Source: Escherichia coli (GTDB lineage: Bacteria; Pseudomonadota; Gammaproteobacteria; Enterobacterales; Enterobacteriaceae). Taken from it: 64,000 nt of DNA. The position numbers and the translations under genes are program-made. The stretch lies in NCBI RefSeq assembly GCF_041886205.1, contig NZ_CP169029.1; one strand, 5' to 3'. A model generated the notes under the pieces. The model saw nothing but the letters and a program-made list of their open reading frames with translations. It did no database searches and was not told the origin of the DNA. How positions within the stretch are numbered: position 1 is the first letter of the stretch; each line of letters begins with the position of its first letter. This document shows positions 12,682 through 21,140 of the stretch, one piece after another.

Positions 12682-14013
12682 TTACCCTAAATCCGCCATC
12701 AACACTTTGGATTTACGCTGGTAGTTGTACAACTGCTTTTTGCTCTCGGGCAGTAAATCAATATCCACTGGGGTAAATCCACGTTCCTGGAACCAGTGAA
12801 TACTGCGCGTGGTCAGCACAAACAATTTGCTTAAGCCGCTCTGCTTCGCCTGAGCGGCAATGCGTTCCAGCAGAACTTCACCCCTTGATGAACTGCGGTA
12901 ATCCGGGTGAACTGCCACACAGGCCATTTCCCCAATCTTCTCTTCCGGGAACGGATAGAGCGCGGCGCAGGCAATAGTCGTGTTATCGCGCTGAATAATG
13001 GTGAATTTGTCGATTTCCATCTCCAGCTGCTCGCGAGAACGGCGTACCAGAATACCTTGCTGCTCCAGTGGGCGAATCAACTCCAGAATACCGCCAATAT
13101 CGTTGATTGTTGCGCGACGAATCTGCTCGGCGCTTTCCATCACAATCTGCGTACCGATACCGTCGCGTGAGAACAACTCTTGCAACAGCGCGCCATCTTC
13201 CTGATAACTGATTAAATGACAGCGACGCACGCCGCTGCGGCAGGCTTTCACTGCGCCACGCAAAAAGCGCACCGTACCGGAGTTGTAATCGCCTTTCTCT
13301 TCCTGGGCTTCTACCCGCGCTTGCGCTTCGTTAGGGAAAAGTTCGGAGACAATATCACCGTCGTCATTAGTGACGCCCTGGGAAGAGCAAAAACCAATCA
13401 TCTTTTCAGCTTTCAGTTTGATGGCCAGTTGAGTGGCAATCTCTTCCGAGGTCAGGTTAAAGCTCTCGCCAGTGACTGAAACAGCGACCGGCCCCATTAG
13501 CACTATTGCACCGCTGTCCAGTTGACGATGGATCGCGTCTTCATCAATCCGCCGGATACGCCCGCTATGGCAGTAATCCACGCCGTCATCGACGCCCAGC
13601 GGCTGGGCAATAATAAAATTGCCACTGACGACGTTGATATGCGCGCCCTGCAGCGGCGTGTTATTGAGACTCATCGACAGGCGAGCAGTAATATCCAGTT
13701 GCAATGTTCCCGCAGCCTGCTTCACCAGTTCCAGTGTTTTGGCGTCGGTCACACGTATATTCTTGTGATACAGCGGTTCGTGGTGATGCGCAGCCAGATT
13801 TGCGTCGATCTGCGGACGTGCGCCATAGACCACCACCAGACGGATGCCGAGGCTGTGCAACAACCCGATATCATTAACGATACTGGAGAAATTCTCATGC
13901 TCAATGGCTTCACCGCCGAGCATGATGACAAACGTTTTTCCCCGGTGGGTATTGATATAGGGAACCGAATGGCGGAATCCCTCGACCAGCTCGGTTTTAC
14001 GTTCCTTTACCAC
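12682..14013 (-). CDS. argA: amino-acid N-acetyltransferase (N-acetylglutamate synthase), 443 aa, GTG start
   Basis: Minus-strand ORF 12682..14079; trimmed to the GTG at 14011-14013 to give [36 protein letters not shown], the known ArgA N-terminus. Confidence 0.94.
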
Positions 14014-14023
14014 GGCACACCTC

Positions 14024-14062
14024 TTTGCATGATTATTCGAAATTATTGTATTTTTATTCTGT
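14024..14062 (-). promoter_or_regulatory. candidate ArgR operator (tandem ARG-box-like sequence) at the argA promoter
   Basis: Minus-strand reading acagaataaaaatacaataatttcgaataatcatgcaaag directly upstream of the argA start resembles tandem 18-bp ARG boxes; argA is a known ArgR regulon member. Confidence 0.4.
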
Positions 14063-14244
14063 TTTTTCGCAGGGTGCAAGTGTAAATTTTATGCGAGAGC
14101 GACTTTTTTATCAGTAATGCCGTGAATATAAAAAGAATGTTTACCGTTTATTAGATGACAGATTATGCGTCTTTCGCTAAAGTTTCCGGTCAAATTAGTC
14201 GTTTACTTGTTACACAGCTTAGATTTCTTTTGCTCGGGAGAGGC

Positions 14245-15498
14245 ATGTCAGGATCCAACACTGCAATCAGCCGTCGTCGTTTACTGCAAGGCGCGGGTGC
14301 CATGTGGCTATTGAGCGTAAGTCAGGTCAGTCTGGCTGCGGTCAGCCAGGTCGTGGCGGTGCGCGTCTGGCCTGCGTCCAGCTACACCCGCGTGACGGTA
14401 GAATCAAATCGTCAGCTGAAATATAAGCAGTTCGCGTTGAGTAACCCGGAACGCGTGGTGGTGGATATCGAAGATGTAAACCTGAACTCGGTACTCAAGG
14501 GGATGGCGGCACAAATTCGTGCAGACGACCCGTTCATCAAGTCGGCGCGCGTCGGGCAATTTGACCCGCAAACCGTACGGATGGTTTTTGAATTAAAGCA
14601 AAACGTAAAACCGCAGCTGTTTGCCCTTGCGCCGGTCGCCGGGTTTAAAGAGCGTCTGGTGATGGACCTCTATCCGGCCAATGCACAGGATATGCAGGAC
14701 CCGCTGCTGGCGCTGCTGGAGGATTACAACAAAGGCGACCTCGAAAAGCAGGTGCCGCCAGCGCAAAGTGGTCCACAACCAGGTAAAGCAGGGCGCGATC
14801 GTCCGATTGTCATTATGCTTGACCCTGGCCACGGTGGCGAAGACTCCGGTGCGGTGGGGAAATACAAAACGCGCGAAAAAGACGTGGTATTGCAAATAGC
14901 TCGCCGTCTGCGCTCTCTGATCGAGAAAGAGGGCAATATGAAGGTGTACATGACGCGCAATGAAGACATCTTCATTCCGTTGCAAGTGCGCGTAGCAAAA
15001 GCCCAGAAACAGCGTGCTGACCTGTTTGTCTCTATCCATGCCGACGCCTTTACCAGTCGTCAGCCGAGCGGTTCCTCTGTGTTTGCGCTCTCAACCAAAG
15101 GTGCAACCAGTACTGCGGCAAAATATCTGGCACAAACCCAGAACGCCTCGGACTTGATTGGTGGCGTGAGCAAAAGCGGTGACCGCTATGTCGACCACAC
15201 CATGTTCGATATGGTGCAGTCGCTGACCATTGCTGACAGCCTTAAGTTTGGTAAAGCGGTACTGAATAAGCTCGGTAAAATCAACAAGCTGCATAAAAAT
15301 CAGGTTGAACAGGCCGGGTTTGCCGTACTAAAGGCACCAGATATTCCCTCCATTCTGGTCGAAACGGCGTTTATCAGTAACGTTGAGGAAGAGCGTAAAC
15401 TGAAAACGGCGACTTTCCAGCAGGAAGTTGCGGAGTCTATTCTTGCGGGAATTAAAGCGTATTTTGCCGATGGGGCGACGCTGGCGAGAAGGGGATGA
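14245..15498 (+). CDS. amiC: N-acetylmuramoyl-L-alanine amidase AmiC (417 aa, Tat signal)
   Basis: Internal ATG at 14245 (RBS gggagagg) gives [24 protein letters not shown]..., a twin-arginine signal; amidase_3 family; divergent from argA as in E. coli. Confidence 0.93.
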
Positions 15499-15507
15499 TG
15501 TTTTTAA

Positions 15508-15540
15508 TTTATTCAATGAATTTATGTTTCATTGAATAAA
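15508..15540. repeat. perfect 13-bp AT-rich inverted repeat (tttattcaatgaa / ttcattgaataaa, 7-nt loop) 10 bp after the amiC stop
   Basis: Read directly from sequence; lies at the left edge of the accessory island. Confidence 0.5.
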
Positions 15541-15689
15541 TATTATTTACATAAATGTTGAACGATGGTTTTGTGACTGCTGTCGAATATTTGAATATCG
15601 GCTTAAAAAATAAGCCTGTCATCTCTTTTATTAAGCACAATTCCGTGTAAGGTATACGCATTAGTTAATTATCTTGTAACTGTTAAATC

Positions 15690-15744
15690 AGGCAAGGCAA
15701 TGTTTGAAGTAATTATTACTTCTGACATGCCTTGCCTTTTTTTT
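15690..15744 (+). terminator. leader stem-loop plus U8 tract upstream of the antiterminator gene; candidate conditional (RAT-associated) terminator
   Basis: Outer stem aggcaaggca (15690-15699) pairs with tgccttgcct (15728-15737); inner palindrome gaagtaat-t-attacttc (15706-15722); followed by 8 T (15737-15744); ends 12 nt before RBS gggag and ATG 15757. Confidence 0.6.
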
Positions 15745-15756
15745 GGGAGCCATGGA

Positions 15757-16581
15757 ATGATCATCGAAAAAGTCATGAACAATAATTGTGTACAGGCATC
15801 GGTGAACGGACAGGAGGTTATCATTTCTGGGCCTGGCGTTGGTTACAATAAAAAATATGGTATGTCGGTCCCTGAGCATCCTGCAAACCGGATTTTTTAT
15901 GTCAGAAATGAGCAAAAAAATAAACTCTACAAATTGATTGAGCATGTGGGTATTGAGTATATTTTTGTTGCCGAAAAGATAGTGCATTATGCGGAGAGTA
16001 ATCTCGAAAAAAAACTCAATCCATCGCTACTACTGATTCTTGCTGATCACATTTCGAATGCAATATCCCGAGTCGTCTCAGGCATACAAATTAATAATGT
16101 TTTCCTTGAGGAAATCAAAGCGTTGTACAAAGCAGAGTATGCAATAAGTCGTGATGCATTAACAATCATTAATGAGCAATTTAGCGTTCAACTACCGGAT
16201 GATGAGATTGGTTTTATAGCATTGCATATTTTAAATAATTATGAAAATTCAGTTGATTATGAATCAGTAAGGATCATTGAGCTGTCTCAAAAAATCACGG
16301 AGCTTATTGAAGTTGTTTATAACAGAAGGGTGGACAGAAGTTCATTTAACTACTCCAGATTTATGATGCACCTTAAATATTTTTCTAGTCGTGTGTTATG
16401 TAATGAAAAAATAAAACAGAAAAATATTGGTGATATCTATGAGCAGTTTCTTGAAAAAGATTTTCAGTTACAACGTGCCATTCATGAAATTGAAAGATAT
16501 CTGTACGCAACTTTTAAATATGATTTGATTCTGGAAGAGAAACTATATCTTTCTATTCGCATCAAAGTATTAATGGACTAA
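15757..16581 (+). CDS. BglG/LicT-family transcriptional antiterminator (CAT RNA-binding domain + PRD domains), ~274 aa
   Basis: N-terminus MIIEKVMNNNCVQASVNGQEVIISGPGVGYNKK is the typical CAT-domain start; ATG 15757 is preferred over the track start 15700 because of RBS gggag and because 15700 lies inside the leader hairpin. Confidence 0.85.
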   Translation: MIIEKVMNNNCVQASVNGQEVIISGPGVGYNKKYGMSVPEHPANRIFYVRNEQKNKLYKLIEHVGIEYIFVAEKIVHYAESNLEKKLNPSLLLILADHISNAISRVVSGIQINNVFLEEIKALYKAEYAISRDALTIINEQFSVQLPDDEIGFIALHILNNYENSVDYESVRIIELSQKITELIEVVYNRRVDRSSFNYSRFMMHLKYFSSRVLCNEKIKQKNIGDIYEQFLEKDFQLQRAIHEIERYLYATFKYDLILEEKLYLSIRIKVLMD

Positions 16582-16612
16582 TTATACATAACATTTTCAT
16601 GAGATAACCAGT

Positions 16613-18193
16613 ATGAAACAAAAGAAAGCCTGGAGTTTTTTTCAGAGCCTGGGGAAGGCATTTATGTATCCCATCGCTCTGTTAAGTGTATGTGGTATGA
16701 TGTTAGGGCTGGGAAGTGGTTTAGCCAGCGATGATATGGGAAAATTCATTCCAGTGTTGGCTATTCCGTTAATTAAAACCATACTTGATTTTATTGTTAG
16801 CCTTGGTTTGTTTGCCTTCGTTAATTTACCTGTATTGTTTGCGATAGCTATACCTTTGGGATTATTAAAAGAGAAAGATGATAAAGCCTATGGCGCTTTT
16901 TCTGGCTTAATTGGCTTTATGGCGATGCATCTTGGAACGAACTTTTATCTTAAACAGCACGACTTATTGGTAGCTGCTGACCAAATGTCGACACATGGGC
17001 AAACCATCATACTCGGGATCCAGTCCTACAATACCAGCGTGTTGGGTGGGATTGTGGCAGGGTTATTAGTCGCCAGCATGTATAAAAAGATCGTTAACTT
17101 ACGTATTCCTGAATCATTAGGGTTTTATAGTGGCCCACGCCTTGTGCCTATCATTACACTGATTGTGATGAGTGGATTTGGTCTGTTCATTCCTTTTATC
17201 TGGCCGCCATTTTTCAATCTTTTCATGCTCATTGGTCACTGGATTTCAACTTCCGGTCCTGTTGGTTATTTCTTCTATGCTGTTGCCGAACGCGTGACGA
17301 TACCTTTTGGCTTAAATCACTTGGTGACATCAGTTTTCCGCTTTACCCCAATCGGCGGATCGGCAGTGATTGGCGGTGAAGAGTATTACGGCACCCTGAA
17401 CATGTTTATGGCATACGTCAAAGAGAATGCGGTCATTCCGCTGGATTTGGCGGGGAAAATGGAGCAGGGCAAACTGATGATTCAGTATGGTCTGGCTGGA
17501 GCCGCGCTGGCGATGTATCGCACTGCTCATGCTCAAAACAGAAGGGCTATCAAAGCATTGCTGATTTCCGGTGTGCTCACGGTAATTATTGGCGGCGTCA
17601 GCGAGCCGATTGAATTTCTGTTCTTATTTGTCAGCCCGCTGTTGTTTGTCTTCCATGCCTTTATGAATGGATTGGCTAACATGGTTCTGCCATATATGGG
17701 CGTGAAGATGGGCTTTACTGGCGATCTGATTCAATTTATTAGCTTTGGTGTCTTACGTGGCACAAGAACGGGATGGCCATTAGCGGTATGTGTTGAAGTG
17801 GCTTATTTCTTCATTTATTACTTTGTGTTCCGTTGGACCATTCTCAAATTTAACCTGATGACTGTAGGCCGTGAAGAGTCCAGTCCTGTCACGCTGAACG
17901 CTCACGAAGAAACTGCAATAGCTAACATCCCAGTTCATGATAAATCAGAGTTGCAGGCAGCGGAGCAAATGGTTAAGGCTCTGGGTGGTAAAGAAAATAT
18001 TAAATCACTGGATAATTGTGTAACTCGTTTGCGTTTAACTATCGCGGATATGGGATTGATAGATGAGGCTGCAATAAAAAGGGCCGGAGGAATTGCGGTT
18101 GTGAAACTTGATCAAAATACCTTACAAGTCATTATCGGTACAAAAGTCATCGCCCTACGTCGGGATATGGATAATTACATGGGGATATGTTGA
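16613..18193 (+). CDS. PTS system glucose-family EIICB component (MalX/PtsG-like), 526 aa, no EIIA domain
   Basis: Multi-span membrane domain followed by C-terminal EIIB with the cysteine motif NCVTRLRLTIADMG; N-terminus MKQKKAWSFFQSLGKAFMYPIALL resembles PtsG/MalX. Confidence 0.9.
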   Translation: MKQKKAWSFFQSLGKAFMYPIALLSVCGMMLGLGSGLASDDMGKFIPVLAIPLIKTILDFIVSLGLFAFVNLPVLFAIAIPLGLLKEKDDKAYGAFSGLIGFMAMHLGTNFYLKQHDLLVAADQMSTHGQTIILGIQSYNTSVLGGIVAGLLVASMYKKIVNLRIPESLGFYSGPRLVPIITLIVMSGFGLFIPFIWPPFFNLFMLIGHWISTSGPVGYFFYAVAERVTIPFGLNHLVTSVFRFTPIGGSAVIGGEEYYGTLNMFMAYVKENAVIPLDLAGKMEQGKLMIQYGLAGAALAMYRTAHAQNRRAIKALLISGVLTVIIGGVSEPIEFLFLFVSPLLFVFHAFMNGLANMVLPYMGVKMGFTGDLIQFISFGVLRGTRTGWPLAVCVEVAYFFIYYFVFRWTILKFNLMTVGREESSPVTLNAHEETAIANIPVHDKSELQAAEQMVKALGGKENIKSLDNCVTRLRLTIADMGLIDEAAIKRAGGIAVVKLDQNTLQVIIGTKVIALRRDMDNYMGIC

Positions 18194-19401
18194 TGGATAT
18201 TTTTAATACCTCAATTTCTCGTAAAGGAACATATTGCACACAATGGGACTTTTGTGAAGACAGATTTGGTGTAAAAGATGTATTACCATTCTCTATTTCA
18301 GATATGGATCTTCCGATACCGGAAGCTATCATCAGAACATTAAAAAAACGTCTGGAACACCCGATTTTAGGGTACAGTCGTTGGCAGCATGATGACTATC
18401 TGAATTCGATAGTCAATTGGTATCATCAACAATATAAAACAGAGATTCAACCAGAATGGATCACCTATAGCCCAAGCGTGATGTATTCAATATCTAAGGC
18501 AATAGAAATATTGACATTGAATGGAGATAATATTCTCATTTTCACGCCTGTTTATAACGCATTTTTTGATGTGATTAAGCATAATGGTCGAAACATGCTA
18601 ACAACCTCTTTGATGAAAGAAAATGGGAGAGGCTACGTTATCAACTGGCAAGACTTTGAGCTTAAAATTAAAAGCGCGAAGATGGTGTTATTATGTAATC
18701 CTCATAACCCGACAGGAACGGTCTGGTCGGAAGACGATCTTCACAGAATCGCAGCATGCTGTGCAAGGCATAATATTTGGTTATGTTCAGATGAAATACA
18801 TAGTGATTTTGTTTTTAATCATAGTTTCACGTCAGCGCTAACAATAAAAGATGACAAAGTGGTGGTGTTTAATTCGATTTCGAAAACATTTAATGTTCCT
18901 GCGCTAACCGGATCATATATGATTTCAACTGACGATAATTTTAATCATAAGTTCAGAACGATATCGAGGTATCGCGATTTCGTAAACTCCCCATCAGTAC
19001 TGAATGTAATTGCGACCATTGTTGCCTATAATGAATGTGAAGAATGGTTAAAGTCGTTAAAGGTACATATTGCCTCTAACATTCAATTTACTTTGCAGTA
19101 TTTAAATGAAAATATTCCGGAATTGATCGTATGGCCAGCTGAGGGCTGCTATTTTTCGTGGGTTGATTGCTCGGCCCTTGGTTATCCCTTTGATAAATTT
19201 TACCGTCGATTAATTAACGAAGGGAGAGTAGGTATTATGGCGGGGCATGTTTATGGTACTGAAGGAGAGGGCTATCTGCGTCTTAATCTGGCCTGCAGTC
19301 GAGAAAAATTATATATGGGGCTTGCGCGCCTTGCGAGTGTAATTAAAAATATTAATCAGGAAAAAGAAAATGAACAATACGGATCTTATCCATCTTATTA
19401 A
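18187..19401 (+). CDS. PLP-dependent aminotransferase class I/II fold protein, MalY/PatB-like cystathionine beta-lyase (C-S lyase), 404 aa
   Basis: N-terminal RKGTYCTQWDF...FGVKDVLPFSISDMDLP and the SISKTFN lysine motif are typical of MalY/PatB; start overlaps the PTS stop. Confidence 0.85.
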   Translation: MLMDIFNTSISRKGTYCTQWDFCEDRFGVKDVLPFSISDMDLPIPEAIIRTLKKRLEHPILGYSRWQHDDYLNSIVNWYHQQYKTEIQPEWITYSPSVMYSISKAIEILTLNGDNILIFTPVYNAFFDVIKHNGRNMLTTSLMKENGRGYVINWQDFELKIKSAKMVLLCNPHNPTGTVWSEDDLHRIAACCARHNIWLCSDEIHSDFVFNHSFTSALTIKDDKVVVFNSISKTFNVPALTGSYMISTDDNFNHKFRTISRYRDFVNSPSVLNVIATIVAYNECEEWLKSLKVHIASNIQFTLQYLNENIPELIVWPAEGCYFSWVDCSALGYPFDKFYRRLINEGRVGIMAGHVYGTEGEGYLRLNLACSREKLYMGLARLASVIKNINQEKENEQYGSYPSY

Positions 19402-19966
19402 ACGTTTTATGCGTAACGAACATAAAGCAGTAGAAGAGGTTATTGATTCCCCCCTTTCGGAAGTCGCGAATTTAATTAAAATATTACAATCTTGCCAGGG
19501 AAAAGTTGTTTTTATTGGTGTTGGGAAATCTGGCATTATTGCCAGAAAACTTGCTGCAACATTTGCCAGCACCGGAACTCCCTCGTTTTTTGTTCACGGT
19601 ACGGAAGCGGTACACGGCGACCTTGGGATGGTGGCGAAAGACGATGTTGTTATTCTTATTTCAAACAGTGGTGAGACGGCGGAAATCCTGGCGACACTGC
19701 CTAGTTTGAAAAAAATGGGTAATTATTTGATCTCTTTTACCCGCAGTCATCACTCATCGCTTGCGATAAGTTGTGATTTATCTGTTGAAATCCCCGTCAA
19801 AAGTGAGGCGGATAATTTAGGTTTAGCACCGTCATGCTCGTCTACTGTTGTTCTGGTTGTTGGTGATGCGGTGGCGCTTGCACTCTCTGAATTGAAAAAA
19901 TTTACTCGTGCTGATTTCGGCTTATATCATCCAGGAGGTGCACTCGGCATTAAAGCAAATTCATAA
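19370..19966 (+). CDS. single SIS-domain sugar-phosphate isomerase, KpsF/GutQ-like but lacking CBS domains (198 aa)
   Basis: VVFIGVGKSGIIARKLAATFASTGTPSFFVHGTEAVHGDLGMV...ILISNSGET matches the arabinose-5-phosphate isomerase SIS domain; overlaps the preceding gene by about 30 nt. Confidence 0.8.
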   Translation: MNNTDLIHLIKRFMRNEHKAVEEVIDSPLSEVANLIKILQSCQGKVVFIGVGKSGIIARKLAATFASTGTPSFFVHGTEAVHGDLGMVAKDDVVILISNSGETAEILATLPSLKKMGNYLISFTRSHHSSLAISCDLSVEIPVKSEADNLGLAPSCSSTVVLVVGDAVALALSELKKFTRADFGLYHPGGALGIKANS

Positions 19967-20037
19967 TTTCAAAGTATAAATACAGTAACCGGTCACGCCA
20001 TCTTTTGGGGTGGCGTTCATTGAAGTGAGTGTCAGCT

Positions 20038-20985
20038 ATGAAAAATGTTCTGGTCACCGTCCCCAACTTTTCAGCACGCTGTGTTTCCGCCAGCAAGTTG
20101 CTAAGAGAGAATAATTTTAATCTTATTATTAAGAATAATGTGGAGCATCTGCTTAAATCAGAATCCACTGCATTACGAGAATCTATTTGCGCGGTCATCG
20201 CCGGAAAAGATTGTTATCAGGCGGACACGCTATCATTGCTGCCTGGTGTGAAAATAATATCAAGATTCGGGACGGGGATAGATAATATTGATCTTCGTGC
20301 AGCACAACAATCCGGTATTGTAGTCAATAATGCGGTTGGGATTAATTCAAATGCTGTCGCGGAATTTATCATTGGACTTATCTTCGCGAGCATGAGAAAT
20401 ATTCCAGGCAGCTATCATGCGATGCAAAATGGCTACTGGGGTGAGTCGCATGGCTATGAATTACAAGGCAAACGGATTGGCATGGTTGGCTACGGCAATA
20501 TAGGTAAAACCCTGGCAAAAAGGTTATCCGGTTTTGATGTTGAGCTTTTAGCTTATGACAAACAACCCGATTATCAGGTTGCTGACAAAGTTGGAGTTCA
20601 GTTTGTATCAATTGAAGATATCTTTATGCAGTCGCATGTCATCATTGTTCTTTTGCCTTTTTCTCCTGAGCTGGAGAACTTCATTAGTCATAAATATTTG
20701 TCGATGATGCGCAATGGTGCTCTAATCATCAATGCCGCAAGGGGAAAGTTGCTGGATGAGGGCGCTTTACTACAGGTGATTGAAGAACGAAATGTGTTTG
20801 CGGCGCTGGATGTGTTTAGCTCTGAACCGTTGGCGCAATTTAGCCCACTGCTACATGCCAAAAATATCATTACAACGCCGCATATTGCGGCCGCCACCGT
20901 TGAGTCATACCAGCAAACCGGTACACACGTTGCCCAGTCGATAATTGATTACTTCGCAGGAAGGGAGATAAAAAACGTGTTGTGA
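20038..20985 (+). CDS. D-isomer-specific 2-hydroxyacid dehydrogenase family NAD-binding protein (~315 aa)
   Basis: Rossmann motif GKRIGMVGYGNIGKTLAKRL and the family pattern ...LLPFSPELENFIS...; ATG 20038 preferred over the GTG at 20029 (uncertain). Confidence 0.8.
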   Translation: MKNVLVTVPNFSARCVSASKLLRENNFNLIIKNNVEHLLKSESTALRESICAVIAGKDCYQADTLSLLPGVKIISRFGTGIDNIDLRAAQQSGIVVNNAVGINSNAVAEFIIGLIFASMRNIPGSYHAMQNGYWGESHGYELQGKRIGMVGYGNIGKTLAKRLSGFDVELLAYDKQPDYQVADKVGVQFVSIEDIFMQSHVIIVLLPFSPELENFISHKYLSMMRNGALIINAARGKLLDEGALLQVIEERNVFAALDVFSSEPLAQFSPLLHAKNIITTPHIAAATVESYQQTGTHVAQSIIDYFAGREIKNVL

Positions 20986-21011
20986 GTTCAGCGAACGAAG
21001 TTTTTAAATAC

Positions 21012-21047
21012 AAAAAAACCGCAATTTGTGGAACACATTGCGGTTTA
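21012..21047 (-). terminator. rho-independent terminator of the tRNA-fMet operon (8-bp GC-containing stem followed by U7 on the minus strand)
   Basis: Stem accgcaat (21018-21025) pairs with attgcggt (21037-21044); the plus-strand A7 at 21012-21018 reads as U7 after the hairpin on the minus strand; 17 bp from the metV 3' end. Confidence 0.7.
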
Positions 21048-21063
21048 TCAGCATTCTAAGTAT

Positions 21064-21140
<77 letters not shown>

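Follow-up and report, generated by a model that had tools for sequence, protein, structure and literature searches.

The window analysed here, a stretch of 64,000 nucleotides from the Escherichia coli contig NZ_CP169029.1, carries amiC (N-acetylmuramoyl-L-alanine amidase) on the plus strand at 14245-15498, with a TGA stop codon at 15496-15498. This assignment follows from the ORF list, from AmiC homologues and from the RefSeq annotation of the corresponding locus of strain LHM10-1, whose sequence across the junction matches the window at 100% identity. Downstream of amiC lies an island segment of 5.5 kb with a GC content of about 40%, and the GC fraction stays between 0.36 and 0.42 across 15200-15800. 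The segment corresponds to the gene set c3405-c3410 of PAI-CFT073-metV, which is retained in uropathogenic strains (PMC2831201). Its five genes, all on the plus strand and identified by annotation and domain match, encode a BglG/SacY-family antiterminator with CAT_RBD and PRD domains (15757-16581), a PTS EIIC-EIIB protein (16613-18193), a MalY/PatB-type aminotransferase (18187-19401), a SIS-domain isomerase (19370-19966) and a 2-hydroxyacid dehydrogenase (20029-20985). Beyond it come the three tRNA-Met genes metZWV, of which metV, annotated on the minus strand at 21064-21140, forms the right-hand limit of the variable segment. Only the five-gene module is present in the window and in the other short-form strains compared, while in ST131, 372_BP0083 and E166 (loci L004, L005 and L007, about 12930-14410 in each) the PTS module leads into type VI secretion genes, encoding a VasL-domain protein and TssE, and not directly into metV. 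The antiterminator gene is intact in the window and is annotated as frameshifted in LHM10-1 (L001, 9408-10231) and in the bat isolate A3 (L021, 408 onward), which suggests operon decay in some lineages.

The control region of the island operon lies between the amiC stop codon and the antiterminator gene. Comparison of alleles reveals a site, TGTGA-N6-TCGAA at 15572-15587, that resembles the CRP consensus and is called CRP-like here. In Citrobacter and Atlantibacter, a TGTGA (or TGTGT) half-site lies at an equal distance from a conserved CATCTC/GGTATAC promoter-like block. A candidate operon promoter lies at about 15629-15665. The leader of the PTS operon (15672-15745, plus strand) consists of a RAT-like sequence, CTTGTAACTGTTAAATCAGGCAAGGCA, overlapping a strong terminator, in which a hairpin at 15690-15737 is followed by a U8 run (-31.6 kcal/mol). 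Across Escherichia this leader is 93% invariant, and it is kept into Citrobacter and Atlantibacter. The terminator (15690-15745), missed by a simple terminator scan, is by fold comparison the first strong structure at which amiC read-through would stop. As a whole, the CRP-like site and the RAT/terminator leader preceding the antiterminator gene follow the standard layout of an antiterminator-controlled PTS operon.

Between amiC and this control region, positions 15508-15540 read TTTATTCAATGAA-TTTATGT-TTCATTGAATAAA, exactly the perfect 13-bp AT-rich inverted repeat given in a preliminary description of the locus. An extra outer pair extends the complementarity to 14 bp, forming a left (5') arm at 15507-15520 (ATTTATTCAATGAA) and a right (3') arm at 15528-15541 (TTCATTGAATAAAT) of 14 nt each, 100% complementary and separated by a 7-nt loop at 15521-15527 (TTTATGT here, TTTATAT in most other alleles). 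A U-rich spacer, UGUUUUUA (15499-15506, plus strand), connects the amiC stop codon to the hairpin; the distance from the stop codon is 9 nt (15499-15507) for the 13-bp repeat and 8 nt for the 14-bp form. On the 3' side, an interrupted U-rich tail extends over 15542-15552 (AUUAUUUACAU, plus strand).

With loops of 3-10 nt allowed, no perfect hairpin-type repeat in the window is longer, the runners-up reaching 11 bp. First-order Markov simulations never matched it: arms of at least 13 bp arose in 0 of 300 simulations of the 5.6-kb island and in 0 of 40 simulations of the whole window, typical maxima being 7-10 bp. The repeat thus exceeds what AT-richness would produce by chance. The plus-strand RNA folds at -13.8 kcal/mol (z = -3.9 against shuffles), and as DNA the repeat folds at -10.7 kcal/mol on either strand (z = -5 to -6). 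Just two of the 14 stem pairs are G-C, in agreement with the earlier remark that a GC-rich stem is lacking. The U-tract immediately 3' of the stem is AUUAUUUA in the window allele, interrupted and with 5 U in 8 nt, and AACAUUUA in B2-type alleles, with 3 U in 8; the tail of the majority B2-type alleles, AACAUUUACC, is poor. Taken together, the two G-C pairs and the interrupted U-rich flank mean that the repeat is not a canonical terminator. A consensus scan of 15300-15900 requiring at least three G-C pairs called no terminator, returning merely two weak promoter-like sites, both on the minus strand, and a permissive Rfam scan of 15300-16000 gave nothing beyond sub-threshold eukaryotic snoRNA and miRNA noise.

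The amiC-PRD junction is present in 1,686 of 5,426 complete E. coli genomes, and the repeat in about 1,690. In the remaining genomes, homology with the window ends at 15499, one base past the stop codon, which confirms the placement of the repeat at the amiC/island junction. These island-free strains have a 73-bp amiC-metV spacer with two canonical terminators. The one belonging to amiC, AAAAAGGCGCTGAATGGCGCTTTTTT, is GC-rich, occupies the place of the hairpin and has a folding energy of -15.5 kcal/mol, compared with -13.8 kcal/mol for the repeat. The repeat itself is absent there, so that it cannot be regarded as the native amiC terminator, a possibility that the preliminary description had left for comparison with island-free strains. 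Between the K-12 spacer and either island end, we found only low-complexity k-mers in common. As no intergenic sequence is common to both haplotypes, they represent alternative cassettes, not the product of a simple insertion. In the comparison with L002 2650-2722 and L025 3764-3873, the exchanged spacer spans 15499-21063, beginning directly after the amiC stop codon and reaching exactly to the 3' end of metV, and no K-12-type sequence is left on either side of the replaced segment. At about 21010-21045, the island haplotype carries a GC-rich bidirectional terminator of its own. The 8-mer GTTTTTAA, found at 15500-15507 and again at 21000-21007, is the sole direct repeat of at least 8 nt between the island ends and probably a chance occurrence in AT-rich DNA.

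In Salmonella, amiC lies directly beside metV, the metV terminator is homologous to that of K-12, and the AT-rich repeat is missing. Since this is the K-12-type layout, we consider the K-12-type arrangement ancestral and the island haplotype derived. No such repeat follows amiC in Salmonella or in two other enteric contigs, which rules out an ancestral amiC terminator. The suggestion that further copies be sought across the genome was followed up: the repeat occurs at a single place in every carrier genome (about 1,690), and no second copy was found in the window and none at all in a plasmid collection. A repeated or mobile element is rejected on these grounds; for the end of a mobile element, an attachment site or a REP/MITE-type repeat, there is also no matching end and no integrase or transposase among the five island genes. 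Among the roughly 1,690 junction-bearing records, one bears a plasmid label although the search of the plasmid collection was empty; this record may be a mislabelled or misassembled replicon.

A homologous operon is found beside different upstream genes in two Citrobacter genomes (L009 and L011) and in Atlantibacter hermannii (L012). Their similarity to E. coli starts at about 15565-15620, taking in the CRP-like half-site, the promoter region and the RAT/terminator, and in none of the three is the repeat found upstream of the operon. This absence indicates that the repeat is not part of the core regulation of the operon and belongs with the amiC context. The 65 bp that hold the repeat match neither the K-12-type sequence nor the conserved control region of the operon (donor-type), and this segment fills the slot where the terminator of the upstream gene normally sits. 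In Atlantibacter, the upstream gene has its own unrelated, GC-rich 13-bp hairpin 6 nt past its stop codon.

Eight distinct alleles from E. coli lineages, E. whittamii, strain E69 and metagenomes were compared; a metagenome scan yielded five contigs, all with known alleles. When a 47-nt region was used to group the genomes by identity to the window allele, 45 genomes were 100% identical and carry the perfect repeat. Another 217 fall at 95-99% identity, where the sampled sequences are O111-type with a G-to-T change in the stem, 913 at 90-95%, where the sampled B2-type sequences have one or two A-to-G changes, and 515 at 80-90%, where the sampled sequences are B2-type and ST131 adds a T-to-C change. 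Most of the allelic A-to-G changes are located in the right arm, where they become U·G wobbles in plus-strand RNA. Sequence conservation of the arms is modest, with 17 of 28 columns (61%) invariant in the eight alleles, compared with 48-68% in the flanks, 86% in the CRP-like site and 93% in the RAT/terminator.

Pairing is preserved better than sequence, and asymmetrically. Over the eight alleles, 96.4% of the pair cells are still paired in plus-strand RNA against 88.4% on the minus strand, and the plus strand has the better minimum free energy in all eight (for example -15.5 against -6.9 and -11.4 against -4.7 kcal/mol). Five one-sided arm changes give G·U or U·G wobbles. In E69, two adjacent T-A pairs are replaced by C-G pairs through compensatory double changes, and the U·G intermediate is present in B2 strains. 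A neutral simulation with the 13 inferred substitutions predicts 7-8 broken pairs where four are observed, with P about 0.02-0.08 depending on the transition fraction, a statistic drawn, like all pairing statistics here, from only eight alleles and few independent lineages. A column-shuffle control for pairing was not significant (64/500). In the flanks, A-G transitions outnumber C-T transitions by 16 to 9, an excess that inflates the apparent compatibility with wobble pairing. Two common alleles also damage the stem: the O111-type G-to-T change (about 217 genomes) weakens the fold from -14.6 to -8.6 kcal/mol, and the ST131 allele contains an A·C mismatch. Overall, the pattern is suggestive, though no more than that, of a pairing constraint acting on the plus strand. 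Because substitutions mostly keep pairing on the amiC-sense RNA strand only, an RNA hairpin is favoured, and the terminator-like role that the preliminary description put aside appears to have been dismissed too soon.

We tentatively postulate, at somewhat less than even odds and from sequence comparison, that the repeat forms an RNA hairpin at the 3' end of the amiC mRNA, acting as a non-canonical terminator or as a stem-loop that protects the 3' end. This reading best accounts for the position of the repeat, the strand asymmetry, the retention of pairing over sequence, and the absence of the repeat from island-free strains and from the other hosts of the operon. In island strains the whole amiC-metV intergenic region has been exchanged, and the normal GC-rich amiC terminator with it. 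What RNA polymerase then transcribes first past the amiC stop codon, as far as structures go, is this A-U-rich stem of 14 bp, with its 7-nt loop and the interrupted U-rich tail behind it. Such a hairpin could act as a weak, non-canonical intrinsic terminator, could block 3'-to-5' exonucleases, or both, and the 3' end of amiC would thereby be set and stabilised. Transcripts reading through would halt some 200 nt downstream, where the strong terminator linked to the RAT in the PTS leader (15745) would serve as a backstop; no other terminator-like structure was found between amiC and that terminator. Several observations count against the hairpin: the two G-C pairs, the broken U-tract, the borderline pairing statistics, the common stem-breaking alleles and the restriction of the perfect form to 45 genomes. 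In addition, the strong leader terminator downstream could make it dispensable.

Compared with the intrinsic terminator of island-free amiC (AAAAAGGCGCTGAATGGCGCTTTTTT), the repeat is likewise a sense-strand hairpin of similar energy less than 10 nt past the amiC stop codon, with a usual loop size and a U-rich 3' flank. It differs in its stem, which is nearly all A-U, and in its U-tract, which is interrupted (AUUAUUU) and poor in most alleles, and it is not called by the scan. Stem-loops at 3' ends protect mRNAs from 3'-to-5' exonucleases after imprecise or Rho-dependent termination. The repeat resembles these structures as a stable hairpin in a 3' UTR that needs no U-tract and in which pairing is kept over sequence; unlike what Rho would favour, the RNA downstream of it is C-poor when read by eye. 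The feature is most plausibly an ordinary amiC 3' hairpin, unusual in its A-U-rich composition.

The main rival to the RNA hairpin is a functionless relic, a palindrome made at or imported by the amiC-metV replacement event and decaying neutrally since. It could have originated, for example, when synthesis folded back or switched template at the recombination joint, or as a piece of donor flank; we consider a relic of this kind, whichever its route, possible but rather unlikely. The location of the repeat, 8-9 nt from the end of homology with island-free genomes, suits such an origin, and the commonest base at each arm position over the eight alleles restores the perfect repeat, from which the other lineages deviate by one to five changes. 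Decay would also explain why stem-breaking alleles are common and why the perfect allele persists in only 45 of about 1,690 genomes. Neutral decay should, however, have broken 7-8 pairs and not four, and it sits poorly with the two compensatory double changes of E69 and with the steady advantage of the plus strand in folding energy. The structure is, moreover, still recognisable in E. whittamii despite a divergence of about 18% in the flanking intergenic sequence. The conservation of the arms, equal to that of the flanks, and the borderline covariation statistics are again compatible with a relic, as is the ability of the leader terminator to stop amiC transcription anyway.

A second alternative assigns the repeat to the acquired PTS operon as a DNA-level element, namely an H-NS nucleation site or upstream silencer, possibly extruded by supercoiling as a cruciform, as at bgl. 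Drawn from analogy, this appears improbable. At bgl, H-NS is reported to bind inside or close to an AT-rich stretch of easily melted DNA that lies upstream of the promoter (PMC8836124; PMC9678765). The island shares with the bgl silencer (PMC8836124; PMC9678765) an AT-rich segment upstream of a CRP site and a BglG-family RAT/terminator PTS operon, with an unrelated gene further upstream; the order of AT-rich region, CRP-like site, promoter, RAT/terminator leader and BglG-family antiterminator gene is bgl-like. A regulatory cruciform within an H-NS-silenced promoter is reported for Vibrio (PMC10325908), and here a hairpin of -10.7 kcal/mol is possible on each DNA strand. The analogy weakens in that the repeat does not accompany the operon in Citrobacter or Atlantibacter and its substitutions favour RNA pairing over a DNA palindrome. 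Most alleles are imperfect DNA palindromes, in which A-to-G changes lead to C·A mismatches on one strand, and these mismatches disfavour a cruciform. Relative to the repeat, the CRP-like site and the probable -10 are also about 55 bp and about 140 bp downstream, respectively. A bolder version would see the palindrome as a DNA-structural switch (cruciform or H-NS nucleation) at the edge of the acquired, virulence-associated PTS operon, setting its silencing, with allelic decay (45 perfect and about 1,640 imperfect genomes) tuning expression between lineages; we judge this markedly less probable still.

The preliminary description had also raised a protein-binding site, which fits poorly with arms no more invariant than their flanks, the missing repeat beside the operon in Citrobacter and Atlantibacter, and the distance of about 140 bp to the probable promoter. 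Of such sites, an operator for a dimeric transcription factor like KdgR is very improbable. Positions 15515-15533 (AATGAATTTATGTTTCATT) have two mismatches to the degenerate form AATRAAAYRNYRTTTYATT of the KdgR box, where 0.13 such matches are expected per window; the resemblance emerged post hoc, after many motifs had been tried, and at three mismatches it is no better than chance (1.2 expected per window). By our own count, the window allele agrees with the KdgR consensus AAATGAAACAnTGTTTCATTT quoted in PMC5559549 at 15 of 20 positions, including a right half-site that is perfect (TGTTTCATT). The left half-site agrees poorly, most alleles have a degraded match, the resemblance is statistically weak, and no promoter is near. 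In a manual allele comparison, the majority B2-type and E69 alleles show three mismatches and that of E. whittamii four. The site is thus poorly conserved, far from the probable promoter and absent in the other genera, and nothing evident ties the island genes to KDG or pectin metabolism. The motifs of ArgR, Cra, CRP/FNR, NagC/Mlc, IHF and OmpR, compared by eye only, do not appear to fit in spacing.

If the RNA hairpin does end or stabilise the amiC message, it would illustrate how a housekeeping gene of cell division retains a defined 3' end although an island has taken the place of its terminator, and A-U-rich hairpins overlooked by standard terminator predictors would be able to do a terminator's job. 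Read-through from amiC into the island would be of some regulatory interest, because the island is the uropathogen-retained c3405-c3410 set (PMC2831201). The repeat also helps to fix the left limit of the island, as the island DNA common to other genera starts only at about 15565. The overall importance is modest.

Two further features surround the repeat. RNAalifold places an outer helix around the hairpin, pairing 15496-15503, around the amiC stop codon, with 15553-15560 on the 3' side of the hairpin. This predicted helix is 100% paired in the eight alleles, including across a TGA/TAA stop-codon polymorphism. In the window allele it contains no pairs other than A-U and G·U, so that it is weak and may be an artefact; as it was chosen by the predictor itself, we left it out of the evidence for the RNA hairpin. 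On the minus strand, an ORF of 50 codons at 15509-15661 (MRIPYTELCLIKEM...KFIE) overlaps the repeat, and a promoter-like TTGCCT-16-GATAAT lies just upstream of it on the same strand. The repeat cannot serve as the terminator of this antisense ORF, since the minus-strand tail is A-rich and the minus-strand folds are weaker. With a dN/dS of 0.4-0.85, no Pfam match to 15509-15661, and a stop codon that is lost in E69 to give 53 codons, the ORF is probably non-coding. It is nevertheless open in every Escherichia allele examined, and its persistence in AT-rich DNA is mildly odd.
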